NCBI GenBank assembly: GCA_965225945.1
Contig: CBDDBZ010000034.1
Location: 96,001 to 160,000, forward strand
Origin: Alphaproteobacteria bacterium
Lineage (GTDB): Bacteria; Pseudomonadota; Alphaproteobacteria; GCA-2731375
Length of the DNA: 64,000 nucleotides
Direction of reading: 5' to 3'
The position numbers and the translations under genes were made by a program. Shown one piece after another: positions 46,517 to 53,359 of the stretch (the first letter of the stretch is position 1; each line of letters starts with the position of its first letter). Under the pieces are notes generated by a model, which saw only the letters and a list, made by a program, of their open reading frames with translations, had not been told where the DNA came from and made no database searches.

Positions 46517-46636
46517 CGCGGGCGCCGGATCGCGGCGCGTGAGCGCGGAGCGAAACCGAAGCAGAAGGCCGCCGGTTCGGGTCGAGTGCACTGTCACTAT
46601 CGTCCCTATCTGGTTAAAGCAGGATGGGCTCCGAAT

Positions 46637-46651
46637 GTTCTTGATATGTTC
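46637..46651 (+). promoter_or_regulatory. LexA box inside the IS, upstream of the transposase
   Basis: GTTC-TTGATAT-GTTC, exact GTTC-N7-GTTC, ending 54 bp before the ATG at 46705. Confidence 0.7.
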
Positions 46652-46704
46652 TCCATAGAGGTGTAGGCTGATCGCATCGGCTGGAGCTTTTGGAGGACTA
46701 TTCG

Positions 46705-47673
46705 ATGAGCGGGATATTGGAGTTCCTCGAACGCCATGGATCGGAGGCGGACTGCATCGAGGCGCTGGCTCGGCTGCGCTGGCCGCAAGGCTACGTCTGC
46801 GCGCGTTGCGGCGAGAGGCGGAACTACCAATTGAAGACGCGGCCGCGGGTCTTCGAATGCGCCGGTTGCGGCCATCAGGAATCGGTGACCGCGGGCACGG
46901 TCTTCCACCGCACCCGCACACCGTTGCGCAAATGGTTCCTGGCGGCGTGGTGGATGGGGCGCGACAAGCGCGGGGTCTCGGCGCTGTTTCTGTCGCGAGA
47001 GTTGAGCCTGCGCTACGACACCGCCTGGCTGATGGCCCACAAGCTGCGCCATGCCCTGACGGAGCGCCCGGAGTTCCCGCTGGAGGGCTTGGTCGAGGTC
47101 GACGAGAGCTATTACGGCGGGCGGGGCAAGCCGGAGAGCCGGGGGCGCGGGCTTTCCAACCCGAACAAGAGCCTGTTGGTGATGGCGGTCGAGAAGTGGC
47201 CGGTCGGGTCGGGCAAGGGCATCAAGGGGAGCGGCTTCGCCGCCGGCGCCGCGCGGCTCGCCATCCTGCCCGAGGCCACCGCCCGTGAGTTGGGCGACTT
47301 CGTGCGCGCCTCGGTGAAGCCGGGAAGCCGCCTCGACAGCGACGCTTTCAAGAGTTACGCCAAGCTTGGCGATACTTATCGCCACCAGCCCGTCGTTCAA
47401 GGCCAAGGCAAGAACGCCGAGCAGCTCATGCCGGTCGTCCATGTCCTGTTTTCCAACGTGAAGACGTGGCTCAACGGAACCTACCACGGGGTGAGCGCCA
47501 AGCATTTGCCGCGCTACGTCCGGGAATGGAACTACCGCTTCAACCGGCGCAAACGCATCTTCGACCTTGCCGATTTCGTGTTGCACCGCGCCATGACCCG
47601 ACCGACCATCACCTACAGGGAACTGGTCGACGGTATACAATCGCAGGGAGCGCTGCCTGCCTTAACCGGATAG
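46705..47673 (+). CDS. IS1595 family transposase
   Basis: CARC...CAGC zinc ribbon, VEVDESY, SDA, NVKTWLNGTYHGVS, EWNYRFNRR. Confidence 0.94.
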   Translation: MSGILEFLERHGSEADCIEALARLRWPQGYVCARCGERRNYQLKTRPRVFECAGCGHQESVTAGTVFHRTRTPLRKWFLAAWWMGRDKRGVSALFLSRELSLRYDTAWLMAHKLRHALTERPEFPLEGLVEVDESYYGGRGKPESRGRGLSNPNKSLLVMAVEKWPVGSGKGIKGSGFAAGAARLAILPEATARELGDFVRASVKPGSRLDSDAFKSYAKLGDTYRHQPVVQGQGKNAEQLMPVVHVLFSNVKTWLNGTYHGVSAKHLPRYVREWNYRFNRRKRIFDLADFVLHRAMTRPTITYRELVDGIQSQGALPALTG

Positions 47674-47999
47674 GGACGGTCACTATAATTGCACTGTAAT
47701 TGGGCTAAAATGCGCCGAATTGCCGCGCGTCATCCCGGATGGCGACGTTTTCGAGCGCGTTTATAATACGATCCGAATATTCCAAATACCATCAAGATAT
47801 TGAAATTCAACGCCGTTCCAGCTTCGCCGCGGCCCGGCCGAATGTCGTTCTGCAAAAAACGCCTCTCGGGCCTGAAAAACCATAATGCCGCATATATAGA
47901 AATAAGTATTTTCCGCTGCTACGGTTGTATTTTGACACTAGATTTCCTACCTGGGGGATTATTGCCGCGATCGAAATTTCTTATCGGCGAGTCCAGCCC

Positions 48000-48791
48000 T
48001 TGTCCGAGCCATTGCCCTGCGAGCCGAGCCCACCCGTGCCCCGGCGGCTGAACGCGACGCGCCACGGTCTCGCCGGCGCCGCGCCGGTGCTGCCCTGGGA
48101 GAACGCGGAGCAGCGCGCCCGGCTCCTGGAGCAGCTTCGTGGCGAGCACGCCCCCGCCGGAGGGACGGAAAGCCATCTGGTCGAGGAGCTGGCGGACATC
48201 CTCTGGCGCCGCCGCCGGCTGCGCCGCGCGGAGCACGCGGCGCACCACGACTGCCTGCGGCGGATCACTTCGGACGGGGCCTCCCACGTCAGCTCCGGCG
48301 AGTCGGCCTGGCTGGCGACGCCGCTGCTCCTGGTCTCGGACACCTCCCGCGTCGCGCCGGGCGCCGTGCGCGACGTCCTGCGCCTGGACCAGGCGGCGCG
48401 ACGCGACGCGCTGGGCGCGCTCGACGCCCGGCTCGAGGCGGCGCGCGCGGCCGGGCGCTACGCCGAGGGCGCGCGGGCCACCGAGGGCGGCATCGAGCGG
48501 CGTCTCGATCGGGCCTCGCGCGAGGCCTGGTATCGGGCGGCGGCGGAGACCCCGTGCGACCCTGGGGCCGAGCCGTCGCTCTTCGCGTGGCTGCACGAGA
48601 CGCTCCTGCCGGCGCTCGAAGCCCGCCGCGCCGTGCTGGTGCATGGCGATCTGATCCGCGACCACCTCTTCGCCAGCGCCCTCGACGAGGCGGCGCTGGA
48701 ACGGCTGCAGCGCCATGACGCCGCTCTCGACCGCAGGTTCGAGCGCACGCTCTCCATGCTGGTCAAGCTGAAGGCGCTGCGCGAGGCGTAG
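48000..48791 (+). CDS. Hypothetical helical protein with NATRHGL motif
   Basis: NATRHGL...VLPWE...LVEELADILWRRRRLRRAE...LDRRFERTLSML; start uncertain. Confidence 0.6.
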   Translation: MSEPLPCEPSPPVPRRLNATRHGLAGAAPVLPWENAEQRARLLEQLRGEHAPAGGTESHLVEELADILWRRRRLRRAEHAAHHDCLRRITSDGASHVSSGESAWLATPLLLVSDTSRVAPGAVRDVLRLDQAARRDALGALDARLEAARAAGRYAEGARATEGGIERRLDRASREAWYRAAAETPCDPGAEPSLFAWLHETLLPALEARRAVLVHGDLIRDHLFASALDEAALERLQRHDAALDRRFERTLSMLVKLKALREA

Positions 48792-48944
48792 ACTCCATCC
48801 GGGGTCAGGGAATCGGTTCCGAGCGCGCTCGAGCGGGTCGGCGCCTGCGATTCGACGTTCGAGACCTGGGACCCCAGTCTTGGATGCCCAAGAAAAGGGG
48901 TCATTCTGCTTTTGTTCCGCTCCAGCGAATAAAGTACAACCTGA

Positions 48945-49892
48945 TTACGCACTAACCTCAGCCAACTTCAGGAGCCGATATGGCATGGGCGGCGTATGCA
49001 GGGCATCGCGGCCGAGGGCTTCGATCATGTCGGCGAGCCGGTAGCGGCGGTTGTATCGGTACTGGAACGCCGCCAGGTAGCGCGGCACATGCTTGGGTCG
49101 GATCGCATGGTAGGTACCGCGCAGGGTGTTTTTGAGGTTGCCGAGGGTGGTGTTGACCCATTTGAAGGCGGGCACGGCGACGGCCCCGGGTCCGGAGCCG
49201 GTGGATATCGGATGATGCGCACAGCCCCGCGTGGTGACGGCGGTGAAGCAGTTGAGCCCGTCGCTGAAAACGCTCGCCCCAGGGCTCAGGTCGCGCTTGG
49301 CCATCTTGGCGATCTCGCTCTTGCGGAAGCCCTTGACGCGGCGCAGCTTGATGCGCACGGGCTGGCCCTCCGCCGTGGTCTGGACGGCGGCGACGAACGG
49401 CGTCTTGCCCGGCGCGCCCCGGCCGCGCTTGGCCCCGGAACGCCGGCCGCCGAGGTAGGCATCGTCCATCTCCACCCGCCCGGTGAGCGGCAATTTGGCA
49501 TCGCGCTCGAGCATGGACTGCATCAGTTTCTGCTTGATCTTCCAGGCCGTGGTCTGGGTGACGCCGAGCCGCCGGCCGAGTTCGAGGGAGGAGATCCCTT
49601 TCTTCGATTGGGTCATGTGATAGATCGCCGAGAACCACAGGGTCAGCGCCAGCTTGGTCGCGTGGAAGAGCGTGCCGGCGGTCAGCGAAACTTGATGACG
49701 GCAGGCGGCGCATTGGTAGAGTTTTCGCCCGGCGATCTCGCAATGGCGCGTGGCGCCACATCGGGGGCAGGCGAACCCCTCCGGCCAGCGCCAGCGGAAC
49801 AGGGCCTCGCGACACTGCTGCTCGGTACCGTACAACTCACGAAAACGCGGCTCGCTGAGCCCCTTCTGGAACTGAACCTTGTTGCGTGGCAT
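48945..49892 (-). CDS. IS1595 family transposase
   Basis: MPRNKVQFQKGLS, CPRC...CAAC, VEMDDAYLGG, SDG, NLKNTLRGTYHA, YRYNRRY. Confidence 0.94.
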   Translation of the reverse strand: MPRNKVQFQKGLSEPRFRELYGTEQQCREALFRWRWPEGFACPRCGATRHCEIAGRKLYQCAACRHQVSLTAGTLFHATKLALTLWFSAIYHMTQSKKGISSLELGRRLGVTQTTAWKIKQKLMQSMLERDAKLPLTGRVEMDDAYLGGRRSGAKRGRGAPGKTPFVAAVQTTAEGQPVRIKLRRVKGFRKSEIAKMAKRDLSPGASVFSDGLNCFTAVTTRGCAHHPISTGSGPGAVAVPAFKWVNTTLGNLKNTLRGTYHAIRPKHVPRYLAAFQYRYNRRYRLADMIEALGRDALHTPPMPYRLLKLAEVSA

Positions 49893-49958
49893 CGTGAATC
49901 TCCTGTAAAACCACCAAATGTTCACGATTTGTACCACATCAATCCGGCTGAGTAAAGT

Positions 49959-50012
49959 GACCACCTCACATACATCCTCTCGCGGTCAGGAGCGGGGTAC
50001 CTGGGTAGTTAC
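49959..50012 (-). mobile_element. Isolated left-end fragment of the IS66-MTase element
   Basis: Reverse complement GTAACTACCCAGGTACCCCGCTCCTGACCGCGAGAGGATGTATGTGAGGTGGTC is near-identical to 9372-9423. Confidence 0.85.
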
Positions 50013-50178
50013 AAATGTTCACGATTTGTACCACATCAATCCGGCGTAAAGTGCGTAATCAGGAAGTACAGTGACCCCTTTTTTGCGTGTGTGACCCCTC
50101 GTGTGTGGTGATTCTCTCGCTGCTATCGGCTGCCTATCGCATCCGCGCCCGGCCGCTGGCACTGTCTTCATGTCGTCT

Positions 50179-51732
50179 CTAATGACCGATCCAATCGGAC
50201 TCGAAACGTGCGTAACAGTCACGCTCGCCCGGCATCTTCAGCCACCCCGCCAGCAACCGAACGGTCGCGAGCAGCAGCCGGTCGCGCAGATGGGTCGAAT
50301 TATGGCCATATTCTTCGTAGGTCGAATGTGTGATCTTCTGATTATGCGGGTCGTTCTGAAACTTGCATGCGGTCACCGCCACCGAAGACAGGTACGGCTT
50401 GCGATCGGCCCCGGATTGCAGATAAGCGTGCGCCAGCGCCGTGGCACGTGGGAAGTCGAGTGAGAGAATCGTCTCGTCGAGTTCCTTTAGCAGAGTCGCG
50501 TCGTCCCTTCGGGAAACATCGTGCGCCAAGAGCTCTTGTTCGACGACCGGCTCGAACAGCTTATTAGAGCGGGCCACGTCGTTGACGAAATTGGCCATCA
50601 AGTAAAGCACACGCGGCTGGTAGGGATTGTCGCTCGTGCGGAACCAATCGTTCGCCGTGTTGCAGTAGTCGAGGGCATGCTGACCATCGGTGAAGCTTCT
50701 GGGTACGGTGGTCCGCAAGATCAGCTCGGCGGCGGCGACCTGGATGGTGTCGCCGAGGCTCTTGATCGACTTGCCGCCCTGAAGCCGCTCGGTGATGCGC
50801 TCGAACAGGGTTTCCTGATCCGCGGTCATCAGTAGCGCAACCATCTCCTCGACCTCTTCGTCGCTGAGCGCGCTCCGGTTCGCCTGCTCGAGACTCTTGC
50901 CACCGTCGTCGGGGAAGGCGTCGGCGAACATGACGCACACCGAATCGTAGAGCGAGTAGTACAGCGGCCCGATCGCCATGTCCGGCACCCCCATGTAGAA
51001 TACCCCATGGGCCTTCTCCCAACCGATGTAATCGGCCAGATCGGTAATGGCCCGGGCGCGAATCGACTTGTGCCCGGTGTTTCTCGCCTTGCGCCCGATG
51101 ATCGTTTCCTGCATGTCGATGACCCCGAGGAAGCGGATCTGATCACGCAACCGGGCGCGCGCGCTTTCGTCCGCGGCCAGACCCAGGAACAGCCCGTAGG
51201 AGCGTTTGGCGTCGCCGCTGATGGTCGCGACCATGTGCTCATGCAGGCGCTCCTCGACCGTTCCCTCGGTGACGATCGGGCTCTGCTCGGGGTTCCACAC
51301 CACCGGGCCGTAGTCCGGCGGCGGCACGTCCATGCCTTTCATCAAGGCGTAGCGCCCGGGGTAGCGGCCCAGCAGCTGATTCCAGATGTCGAGACCGGCC
51401 GGCACATACCAGATGCTCTGCAACAGGGGTAGGAGGCGATACGCTTCGGGCATGAACGGCATCAGGCTGACCGAGGCACGCAAGCCGAGCAGGGTGTGGT
51501 CATTGTTGACCAGGGTGATGTTGCCATCGCGCATATTGATGTGGCTGTGAACCTGTACGTACGGCGCCTCGGCGGCCACGACGATGCTCAGCGCATCGCC
51601 CACGGAGCGCCCCTGGTGGACCACCATCCGGTGGAAGATGTCGGCCGTGCGGGGTTGATCGCGCTCCAGGATCGCCTGGTTCAAGGCATCGAAATTCTCG
51701 TCCTGGGATATCTGCTCTCGGGTCACCAGCAT
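50179..51732 (-). CDS. Hypothetical alpha-helical protein (517 aa) with four spaced His motifs
   Basis: Long ORF with ATG at 51732 after GGAG; NDHTL, GHKSI, QHAL, DPHNQK. Confidence 0.75.
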   Translation of the reverse strand: MLVTREQISQDENFDALNQAILERDQPRTADIFHRMVVHQGRSVGDALSIVVAAEAPYVQVHSHINMRDGNITLVNNDHTLLGLRASVSLMPFMPEAYRLLPLLQSIWYVPAGLDIWNQLLGRYPGRYALMKGMDVPPPDYGPVVWNPEQSPIVTEGTVEERLHEHMVATISGDAKRSYGLFLGLAADESARARLRDQIRFLGVIDMQETIIGRKARNTGHKSIRARAITDLADYIGWEKAHGVFYMGVPDMAIGPLYYSLYDSVCVMFADAFPDDGGKSLEQANRSALSDEEVEEMVALLMTADQETLFERITERLQGGKSIKSLGDTIQVAAAELILRTTVPRSFTDGQHALDYCNTANDWFRTSDNPYQPRVLYLMANFVNDVARSNKLFEPVVEQELLAHDVSRRDDATLLKELDETILSLDFPRATALAHAYLQSGADRKPYLSSVAVTACKFQNDPHNQKITHSTYEEYGHNSTHLRDRLLLATVRLLAGWLKMPGERDCYARFESDWIGH

Positions 51733-51772
51733 CGCTGTTCTCCACGCAACCGTTTTCTTTGGATCATCGAGT

Positions 51773-52140
51773 TCAGGTCCTCGTCGGAGCCGAGTACCCG
51801 GGCCGCCGTCCCCGTTCCCAGACATGGGCGCGGGCCACGTCTTCGTTCAAATCACCACCCCAGCCCGGGCGGTTTGGGATGATCACATCGCCGTTCACGA
51901 TCTCGAGCTTTGCCGTCAGAAGATCATCTTTCCACGGCACGTCATCGATGTCGATTTCCGAGATGCGAACATTGCCCACCGACGCGCAGAGATGCACCGA
52001 GTGAAGGGTGGACAGATGGCTGTAGTAGTTGTGCGGTGCGATGTTGATGTCGAAGCTCTCCGCCATGTCCGCGACCTTCTTTGCTTGCGTGAAGCCGTTC
52101 CACGGCAGGTCGACCATGCAGACGTCCATGGCCCGGGCTT
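51773..52140 (-). pseudogene. Mandelate racemase/muconate lactonizing enzyme family, 5'-truncated
   Basis: Only the C-terminal EARAMDVCMVDLPWNG...IAPHNYYSH...EIDIDDVPW...PGWG part remains; ends at hairpin copy 2. Confidence 0.8.
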
Positions 52141-52195
52141 CGCCGGAGAAAAGGGGTCATTCTGCTTTTGTTCCGCTCCAGCGAATAAAGTACAA

Positions 52196-53220
52196 GGCTC
52201 AATTCGTGAATTGTATGCATTAGTGATAGAGTGCCCGGAACGTCAGGAGGTTGGGTTATGGACGGCAAGGGTTTCCAGGTGTGGCTTTCGGCGGCGCGCG
52301 GGCTGACGCGCGCGCAGCGGCGCGAGGCGCTCGCGGTGCTGTCGGGCCGGAGCGAGGGCGAGGCATCGAAGGCCGCGATCGAGCTTGGTGTGGACGAGGC
52401 CCGGCGCTGTCCGCACTGCGCGAGCGAAGGGGCGGTTTCGCGCGGTATGGCGCGGGGTCTGCGGCGCTACCAGTGCAAGGGCTGCGGCAGGACCTTCAAC
52501 GCGCTGAGCGGTACGCCGCTGTCGGGCTTGCACCACAAGGAACGCTGGCTGTCGTTCGGGGCGTCGCTGGCGAAGGGGGAGACGGTGAAGGCCTCGGCGG
52601 CGCGCTGCGACGTGGCGGTGAGCACGGCGTTCCGCTGGCGTCACCGGTTTCTGGCGGCGGCGCGGAGCGATTCGGAGGTGCTCAAGGGGATCGTGGAAGC
52701 GGACGAGACCTACGTCCTGGAGAGCCGGAAGGGCGCGCGCGGGCTGGGGCGCAAGGCACGGCGGCGGGGCGGCAAGGCGAAGAAGCGCGGCCTCTCGCGC
52801 GAGCAGGTACCGGTTCTCATGGCGGCGGACCGGAGCGGAACGACGGTCAGCGCGGTGCTGCCCAGGGTCGATGCGGCGGCGCTCACGGCTGCCCTCGACC
52901 CGGTGGTCGCGAAGGACGCCCTGCTGGTCTCCGACGGCGGCGCGAGCTACCCACCGTGCGCCGCCGCGCTCGGGGTGAGCCACGAAGCACTCAACCGCTC
53001 GATGGGGGAACGGGTTCGGGGCGATCTGCATGTGCAGACGGTGAACAGCCGCCACAGCCGGTTGAAGGACTTCCTGCGTCCCCGCCGCGGCATCGCCACC
53101 CGCTATCTGGACAACTACCTGAGCTGGTTCCACCTCGTCGGCCTCGCCCCCGGCGCCAATGACCGAGCCTGCCTCGCCGCCGCCGTAACAAGGTGACGCA
53201 TACAATTCACGAATTGAGCC
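52196..53220 (+). mobile_element. IS1595-family element (ISPna2-like GGC ends)
   Basis: Perfect 23-bp TIR GGCTCAATTCGTGAATTGTATGC; 8-bp TSD AAGTACAA (52188-52195 / 53221-53228). Confidence 0.95.
52258..53196 (+). CDS. IS1595 family transposase
   Basis: CPHC...CKGC, IVEADETY, SDG, HVQTVNSRHSRLK, GIATRYLDNYL. Confidence 0.94.
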   Translation: MDGKGFQVWLSAARGLTRAQRREALAVLSGRSEGEASKAAIELGVDEARRCPHCASEGAVSRGMARGLRRYQCKGCGRTFNALSGTPLSGLHHKERWLSFGASLAKGETVKASAARCDVAVSTAFRWRHRFLAAARSDSEVLKGIVEADETYVLESRKGARGLGRKARRRGGKAKKRGLSREQVPVLMAADRSGTTVSAVLPRVDAAALTAALDPVVAKDALLVSDGGASYPPCAAALGVSHEALNRSMGERVRGDLHVQTVNSRHSRLKDFLRPRRGIATRYLDNYLSWFHLVGLAPGANDRACLAAAVTR

Positions 53221-53283
53221 AAGTACAATGACCCCTTTTTTCTTTTTTTGCTTTCTCGATATGAGCTAAGTCATTGAAAAAAT

Positions 53284-53359
<76 letters not shown>

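Follow-up and report, generated by a model that had tools for sequence, protein, structure and literature searches.

Why should two different insertion sequences (ISs) be found at the identical base in two copies of the same hairpin? This question is raised by a 64,000-nucleotide stretch of DNA from Alphaproteobacteria bacterium (GenBank assembly GCA_965225945.1, contig CBDDBZ010000034.1, positions 96,001 to 160,000 of the forward strand), referred to here as the window, in which two IS1595-family elements, named IS_A and IS_B, each interrupt a hairpin and lie on either side of a 2-kb segment. In an initial annotation of the window, it was suggested that IS1595 members are directed to this hairpin by its structure or by a protein, or that both hairpins had been inactivated by selection, thereby freezing a cassette between them, and an A/T-rich target preference was named as a simpler contributor. 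Here, we find that the hairpin belongs to a family of dispersed palindromic repeats, that IS_A has inserted into this family many times and always at the same base, and that IS_B has done so once, a pattern that is probably best explained by the sequence preference of the transposases.

The two interrupted hairpins in the window are copies of the same sequence. Identity between them amounts to 96% over 54 nt for the left halves (48886-48939 and 52142-52195) and to 95% over 21 nt for the right halves (50064-50084 and 53221-53241), and the sequence rebuilt without the ISs is a long imperfect palindrome, AAAAGGGGTCATTCTGCTTTTGTTCCGCTCCAGCGAATAAAGTACAATGACCCCTTTT. It had been claimed that the same 8-mer, adjoining TGACCCC, is duplicated by both elements. 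This is the case for IS_B, whose target duplication is perfect (AAGTACAA at 52188-52195 and again at 53221-53228), but only 7 of the 8 positions agree for IS_A, which has AAGTACAA on the left (48932-48939) and AAGTACAG on the right (50064-50071). The right 8-mer is followed by TGACCCCTTTTTT in both hairpin copies. In the genome as a whole, we counted 27 paired copies and 8 unpaired ends of IS_A and 54 paired copies and 9 unpaired ends of IS_B; the 8-bp duplication is perfect in 22 of the 27 and in 46 of the 54 paired copies, respectively.

Terminal inverted repeats and 8-bp target duplications define the IS1595 family, and both elements, which had been placed in this family from the start, possess these features and are matched by the corresponding Pfam and NCBIfam models. 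The inverted ends are perfect over 14 of 14 nt in IS_A (CCTGATTACGCACT) and over 23 of 23 nt in IS_B (GGCTCAATTCGTGAATTGTATGC). The IS_A protein is recognized by the Pfam models DDE_Tnp_IS1595 (120.8 bits, cut-off 27) and Zn_ribbon_IS1595 (59.6 bits, cut-off 25.4) as well as by NCBIfam transpos_IS1595 (192.7 bits, cut-off 75), and the IS_B protein by DDE_Tnp_IS1595 (60.1 bits, cut-off 27) and transpos_IS1595 (167 bits, cut-off 75). The zinc ribbon of IS_B is detected by NCBIfam IS1_IS1595_Zn (38.5 bits, cut-off 28), and its score with Pfam Zn_ribbon_IS1595 (21.4 bits) lies under the cut-off of 25.4. The two transposases share 26% identity over 158 alignable residues. The best match of a tblastn search against plasmids is 64.6% identical and is annotated only as 'IS1595 family transposase', which gave no ISfinder name.

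The hairpin itself had been taken to be present in just two copies. A pattern search of the 6.27-Mb genome returned 103 matches; once eight from an unrelated repeat had been excluded, 95 arms of the family remained, and the hairpin repeats are spread over at least 20 contigs. They occur in a short form of approximately 58 nt, a long form of approximately 96 nt and as a few elements of 150-720 nt. An uninterrupted copy of the subtype seen in the window folds as single-stranded DNA with -16.3 kcal/mol (z = -4.9), and none of 200 shuffled sequences was as stable. Both window hairpins are extragenic, one located about 100 nt past a stop codon and the other 43 nt past a tRNA-Phe gene. The two longest elements (C35:366145-366862 and C22:27662-28379) carry an open reading frame (ORF) for 220 amino acids between their arms (L001:193-855), the product of which matches Pfam Y1_Tnp (E 5.9e-15, 55.9 bits, cut-off 23) and scores just under the cut-off of 80 bits with NCBIfam REP_Tyr_transpos (E 3e-22, 79.1 bits). 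The repeat arms flank this Y1 transposase gene in inverted orientation, and remnants of it persist in shorter, internally deleted derivatives that have the same arms. The window hairpin is therefore a member of a REPIN-like palindromic repeat family (REPIN, repetitive extragenic palindromic (REP) doublet forming hairpin), which belongs to a RAYT (REP-associated tyrosine transposase) gene of the Y1 type. GTAG or GTAC is found within the arms (AAGTAGAA, AAGTACAA), inside the stem, with 2 nt separating it from the TGACCCC foot. A search of 35 other genomes, among them two of the same genus, did not recover the arm motif.

IS_A adjoins an arm of this family at 10 loci, where the duplicated 8-mer (AAGTACAA or AAGTAGAA) is always next to TGACCCC, and a separate whole-genome pattern search recovered the same 10 junctions. 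A third IS1595-type element (C36:82204-83229), which shares 69% nucleotide identity with IS_A over 835 nt, is inserted at the same arm position with a perfect duplication, AAGTATAA. IS_B is found within the repeat family at a single locus, the one in the window, corresponding to 1 of its 54 paired copies or 1 of its 46 distinct sites. Taken over the whole genome, the tabulated targets bear out the earlier suspicion that this hairpin is a recurrent target, and the fraction of hairpin copies interrupted at this base amounts to 12 of approximately 53 arms of the susceptible type (~23%; ten by IS_A, one by IS_B and one by the third element). The IS_A hot spot is real and well replicated, whereas the IS_B insertion is a single hit compatible with chance. 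Of three IS_B sites that a site classifier assigned to the REPIN class, two matched short strings by chance and only one is real according to the junction listings.

The IS_A insertions into hairpins are independent events, as can be seen from their orientation, their surroundings and their scatter on a tree. Among the seven orientable full-length copies, four are inserted in the orientation seen in the window and three in the opposite one, and both the flanking DNA and the hairpin subtype vary among the occupied loci. In a maximum-likelihood tree of 24 IS_A copies, the seven hairpin-borne copies require seven label changes, at least five of which are forced by well-supported branches. This tree rules out a hairpin-specialized subclade of IS_A as well as copying of the element from hairpin to hairpin. 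An IS_A-arm junction was found in none of 60 other genomes searched.

What, then, do the two elements recognize? To derive target consensus sequences, we used sites located outside the repeat family whose two duplicate 8-mers agree at 7 or 8 positions, and entered every site type a single time, which left 13 sites for IS_A and 43 for IS_B. The two preferences coincide. C at position -2 is found in 81% of the IS_A and 60% of the IS_B sites, A at -1 in 88% and 57%, T at +1 in 88% and 57% and G at +2 in 81% and 60%, and A or T occupies positions 1, 2, 7 and 8 of the duplicated sequence in 96-100% of the IS_A sites and in 100% of the IS_B sites. The consensus common to both elements is CA-WWNNNNWW-TG. 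The hit arm of the window, GGTCA-TTGTACTT-TA, has five of the six flank and edge features, and the hit arm type across the repeat reads GGTCA-TT(G/C)TACTT-TA. The genome, first put at roughly 70% G+C, has a measured G+C content of 64-68% depending on the contig and of 66% overall.

Two further hot spots are shared between the elements. The site TTCTTGTT, located in an IS91-type transposase gene (Pfam Y2_Tnp, 229 bits), is present in 19 copies, seven of which carry IS_A and two IS_B, and the placement of four IS_A copies from this site requires four changes on the tree. A repeat with the structure GCATTCATTTT-N6-AAAATGAATGC, here called Y, is present in approximately nine copies, four with IS_B and one with IS_A. 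Because these two additional sites are also shared, the occurrence of two IS1595 elements at one identical base is a general habit of this pair and is not peculiar to the window. A family-level target preference held in common by both elements in a G+C-rich genome explains most of the pattern, so that the A/T-rich target preference, brought up initially as a simpler contributor, carries much of the explanation.

The repeat family also offers an internal comparison. In the long elements, both arms carry TTCTACTT and an identical outer flank, and they differ on the loop side only. Arms in which TTCTACTT is followed by TA are occupied in 6 of 14 cases, whereas none of the 16 arms in which it is followed by TT is occupied (Fisher p = 0.005), and T at +2 is absent from all other IS_A sites. 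The choice of the arm follows the sequence. Away from the repeat, the rebuilt empty sites fold like 400 A/T-matched controls (Mann-Whitney p = 0.56 for IS_A and 0.65 for IS_B), and the site in the IS91-type gene contains no palindrome, with the rebuilt site at -13.4/-13.5 kcal/mol compared to a mean of -10.4 (standard deviation 4.2) for the controls, a difference of less than one standard deviation. We also looked at relatives of IS_A in public genomes, for which 18 loci were found, 12 were examined and three had clean CCTGAT-type ends and a perfect duplication. All three have xA-N8-TG flanks and none of them is located in a hairpin, which, given the small number, is a hint only. The remaining inverted-repeat calls among the examined relatives look spurious and were dropped.

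Short-range sequence models account for the two elements to different degrees. According to the IS_A weight matrix, the arm is one of approximately 2056 equally good or better positions in the genome. With 10 of 23 distinct IS_A events in hairpins, 0.07 would be expected using the weights and 0.54 assuming uniform choice (p = 5e-20 and 4e-11, respectively), an excess of approximately 18- to 140-fold. For IS_B, 1 of 46 sites was observed and 0.07-0.47 were expected (p = 0.07-0.38), so that its single hit in the window fits its general preference and no special targeting of the hairpin.

Based on these sequence comparisons, we propose that a preference of the transposases for the sequence of the REPIN-like arm is the main cause of the insertions, and we regard this account as a whole as probable. 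The arm fits the target consensus shared by the two IS1595 elements, namely CA, 8 bp with A or T at positions 1, 2, 7 and 8, and TG. The transposase would cut this target with an 8-bp stagger, leading to the 8-bp duplication. Consensus sites would be scarce at 66% G+C and the repeat would supply around 50 dispensable ones, thus serving as a recurrent landing pad on which every arriving element strikes one and the same base. In this reading, the window contains two independent instances of the process, unrelated to the 2-kb segment between them. Several observations weigh against such an explanation. The position-weight model, built on only 13 IS_A sites, under-predicts the hits in the repeat, and ten hits where 0.54 or fewer are expected indicate that a factor beyond the 14-nt core is at work. 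In addition, the second hot repeat, Y, is likewise a hairpin, and there is a weak hint that pairing of the arms matters, as none of seven long elements (RAYT-bearing or internally deleted), the arms of which are 130-720 nt apart, is occupied. The extra excess of IS_A might come from recognition over a longer range, from local DNA properties or structure, from bound proteins, or from insertions persisting more readily where the DNA is dispensable.

One might speculate that what attracts the transposase is the repeat extruded as a hairpin or cruciform, or else a repeat-binding protein such as the RAYT or a nucleoid protein, and that the sequence sets the exact base only. The 18- to 140-fold excess of IS_A over the sequence models would be in line with this, as would the accumulation of IS_B in hairpin repeat Y (4 of 46 distinct sites), the contrast between the distant-arm elements (0 of 7 occupied) and the short ones (12 of ~46), and the targeting of REP sequences by other IS families described in the sections of Tobes and Pareja (2006, PMC1525189) drawn on here. 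However, a symmetric structure should not discriminate between arms with an identical 8-mer and outer flank, of which one type is hit (6/14) and the other is not (0/16); the hot site in the IS91-type gene is non-palindromic with a fold within one standard deviation of the controls; other insertion sites fold no better than the 400 controls; and none of the three cleanly bounded relatives lies in a hairpin elsewhere. We consider this explanation unlikely. With regard to the structure- or protein-directed targeting by IS1595 members put forward in the initial annotation, the recurrence of IS_A at the hairpin stands, but IS_B (1/54) fits its general preference, and a targeting directed purely by structure is unlikely in view of the same 8-mer being hit or spared according to its neighbouring bases and of other sites being no more hairpin-prone than controls. 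An alternative that is possible, if also not likely, is that any consensus site is hit and only insertions in dispensable DNA, such as hairpins, other ISs or the Y repeat, persist, so that an older element such as IS_A comes to look hairpin-specific. All three hot sites are indeed in repeated and probably dispensable DNA, and IS_A, with copies 1.2-6.1% from the consensus and 10 of 23 events in the repeat, is older than IS_B, whose near-identical copies (median 0.1% from the consensus) point to a recent burst and which has 1 of 46 sites in the repeat. On the other hand, IS_A copies in hairpins show no greater divergence than those elsewhere (1.55-4.95% compared to 1.17-6.12%), 13 other IS_A site types persist, and an excess of at least 18-fold by selection alone would need more than 90% of the equally good sites to be lethal. 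Clearly doubtful is the idea that two IS1595 subgroups, which are only 26% identical, both read REPIN hairpins as dedicated landing pads by way of structure or a bound RAYT or host protein. If this were the case, each hit, which splits the 8-mer bearing GTAG or GTAC, would disable a REPIN, resulting in a conflict between two kinds of selfish DNA; the GTAG tetranucleotide is needed by RAYT enzymes in E. coli REPs.

The initial annotation also raised the possibility that both hairpins were inactivated by selection, fixing or 'freezing' the segment between them. Only the layout speaks for it, with two interrupted copies of one subtype flanking 50064-52195. This DNA is present in a single copy in the genome and contains one ORF for 548 amino acids without a family match as well as the remnant of an enolase-superfamily gene that has lost its 5' part and retains the C-terminal third, and no recombinase was detected among eight ORFs scanned around the insertions. 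The hairpins lack the features of cassette sites: the 95 arms of the family, which is associated with a RAYT gene, are scattered through the genome and not confined to cassette boundaries. Moreover, at an occupancy of 12 of 53 susceptible arms, chance alone would place an insertion in both of two given arms in approximately 5% of cases, and nothing ties the two insertions together in function. We find no support for a frozen cassette and regard it as extremely improbable, and the case cautions that two insertions at identical bases need not imply selection on the DNA between them. Equally remote is the idea that the assembly was joined chimerically within repeats at these junctions. The large number of IS copies and the repeated nature of the hairpin speak for it, and no public contig from four runs spans either junction by 31 nt in both directions; as expected, these contigs end in repeats. 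Nevertheless, contigs of three runs begin 9-18 nt inside the right end of IS_A, cross its right junction and continue for 1.9-2.1 kb into unique DNA. The 8-bp duplications flanking each IS, the flanks that rebuild a complete palindromic member of the family and the ten other loci with the same architecture but different flanking DNA make a chimera very unlikely. As to the history of the segment, the break in the enolase-superfamily gene (51773-52141) adjoins the outer edge of hairpin copy 2, pointing to a deletion or rearrangement that broke the DNA at this repeat boundary.

The IS1111-attC group of the IS110 family targets the attC hairpins of integrons. The present case is similar in that an IS family lands in a hairpin, but different in that there is no integron and there are no cassette boundaries, and the elements encode a DDE transposase of the IS1595 type and generate an 8-bp duplication. 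Targeting of REP sequences has been described for members of the families IS3, IS110, IS4, IS256 and IS5, among them IS1397 and ISKpn1 (IS3), IS621, ISPpu9, ISPpu10 and ISPa11 (IS110) and ISRm22 (IS4) (Tobes and Pareja, 2006, PMC1525189). In the sections of this work consulted, IS1595 is not named and IS1016 is tabulated at 2/17. Like these elements, IS_A has inserted again and again into a palindrome, at an unvarying position and at numerous loci within a single genome. The high selectivity of ISRm22, for which 9 of 9 insertions in REP sequences are given in the same part of the source (PMC1525189), is not seen with IS_A (10/23 events) or IS_B (1/46), and, unlike the REP-targeting ISs described there, a general target consensus explains the arm and the base that are hit. 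For the IS1595-family element ISEc69/Tn7052, experimental targets in E. coli have 8-bp duplications with 100% A/T at positions 1, 2, 7 and 8 (PMC7835479), matching the 100% for IS_B and the 96-100% for IS_A seen here, whereas the CA...TG flank preference and the palindromic hot spot are not reported for ISEc69 in the portion of that study used for the comparison. As in REPIN-RAYT systems, so far as these are described in the parts cited (Bertels and Rainey, 2011, PMC3116915; Ton-Hoang, 2012, PMC3333891), a multicopy palindrome is accompanied by a Y1 gene placed between inverted arms, but here the genome has two almost identical full-length copies of the RAYT gene as well as internally deleted derivatives. 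A conserved GTAG (or CGTC) lies 5' of the foot of the REP hairpin according to the relevant sections of two studies (PMC3333891, PMC3733652), and the position of GTAG/GTAC in the present repeat, inside the stem and within the IS target 8-mer, is unlike that in E. coli REPs. Our literature search retrieved no link between the IS1595 family and REP or REPIN targets. The landing of ISs in REP-type repeats as such is known, and the hot spot described here adds an IS1595-family element to the examples.

With two divergent transposases following one consensus, three shared hot sites and 12 of approximately 53 arms hit at one base, this genome provides a natural data set. It makes it possible to ask whether a weak sequence preference combined with a G+C-rich background can imitate site-specific targeting and whether structure adds to it. 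It also illustrates that insertion sequences can erode a REPIN population, as about a quarter of the susceptible arms are already interrupted.

Features of the window around the two interrupted hairpins, in order of position
Feature	Coordinates	Strand	Remarks
IS_D, third IS1595-family element	46598..47678	+	~17 full copies in genome; outside any hairpin
Repeated 1.2-kb unit	47702..48892	+	5-6 genome copies (BLAST); carries ORF 47925..48791
Hairpin copy 1: outer arm, loop, inner part of hit arm	48893..48939	.	
IS_A, IS1595-family	48940..50063	-	1124 bp; usual copy 1029-1031 bp
IS_A transposase ORF, 339 aa	48945..49964	-	
Solo end (53 bp) of another IS, inside IS_A	49960..50012	.	end GTAACTACCCAGGTACC
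Hairpin copy 1, rest of hit arm	50064..50084	.	
548-aa ORF	50179..51825	-	no family match; single copy in genome
Enolase-superfamily gene, C-terminal fragment	51773..52129	-	Pfam MR_MLE_C, profile 120-219 of 219
Hairpin copy 2: outer arm, loop, left 8-mer	52146..52195	.	
IS_B, IS1595-family	52196..53220	+	1025 bp; 0.10% from family consensus
IS_B transposase ORF, 321 aa	52231..53196	+	
Hairpin copy 2, rest of hit arm	53221..53241	.	
tRNA-Phe (GAA)	53284..53359	-	hairpin copy 2 ~43 nt downstream of its 3' end

Upstream of hairpin copy 1, the product of the IS_D ORF (46690..47673) matches Pfam DDE_Tnp_IS1595 with 100.7 bits, and the ORF of the repeated 1.2-kb unit had no match in Pfam or NCBIfam. 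The hairpin subtype seen in the window follows this unit in three of its copies, and hairpin copy 1 closes the unit in the window. At the other end of the locus, hairpin copy 2 and an adjoining T-run, 43 nt downstream of tRNA-Phe, may have acted as a terminator before the insertion of IS_B; with the hairpin split, read-through from tRNA-Phe would run antisense into the IS_B transposase gene.

Within the repeat family, two other arrangements were observed. At C10:27732-28502, a 613-bp partial IS_D is enclosed by two hairpin copies that are identical to each other, flanks included, an arrangement that looks like a local duplication. At C27:65049-69484, a hairpin copy is interrupted 5 nt nearer to the loop with the duplication GAATAAAG; the interrupting element has GTAACTGCCCAGGTA ends, is present in approximately 25 copies and likewise prefers A/T-rich 8-mers. 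The Y repeat consists of a perfect 11-bp stem within a longer conserved unit rich in GCATTCAT motifs (for example L026:255-330, C36:208154-208229; the copy on the window contig is at C34:390608). In the IS91-type element, present in approximately 19 copies (for example L025:1315-2529, C9:33114-34328), the Y2 transposase gene lies beside a gene of the phage integrase family.

The genome is generally rich in ISs, with at least five families of 17-60 copies each lying inside contigs. The IS_A copy of the window exceeds the usual length of 1030 bp by 94 bp, and the region with the extra DNA (49915-50053) holds the 53-bp solo end of another element, flanked by a direct repeat of IS_A sequence of at least 34 bp (49915-49948 and 50012-50045). 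At C33:300275-303743 and C37:247818-251286, IS_A carries a full 2.4-kb copy of this other element at the corresponding position, and an end of it is also located within an interrupted IS_A on C38 (ending at 530102).

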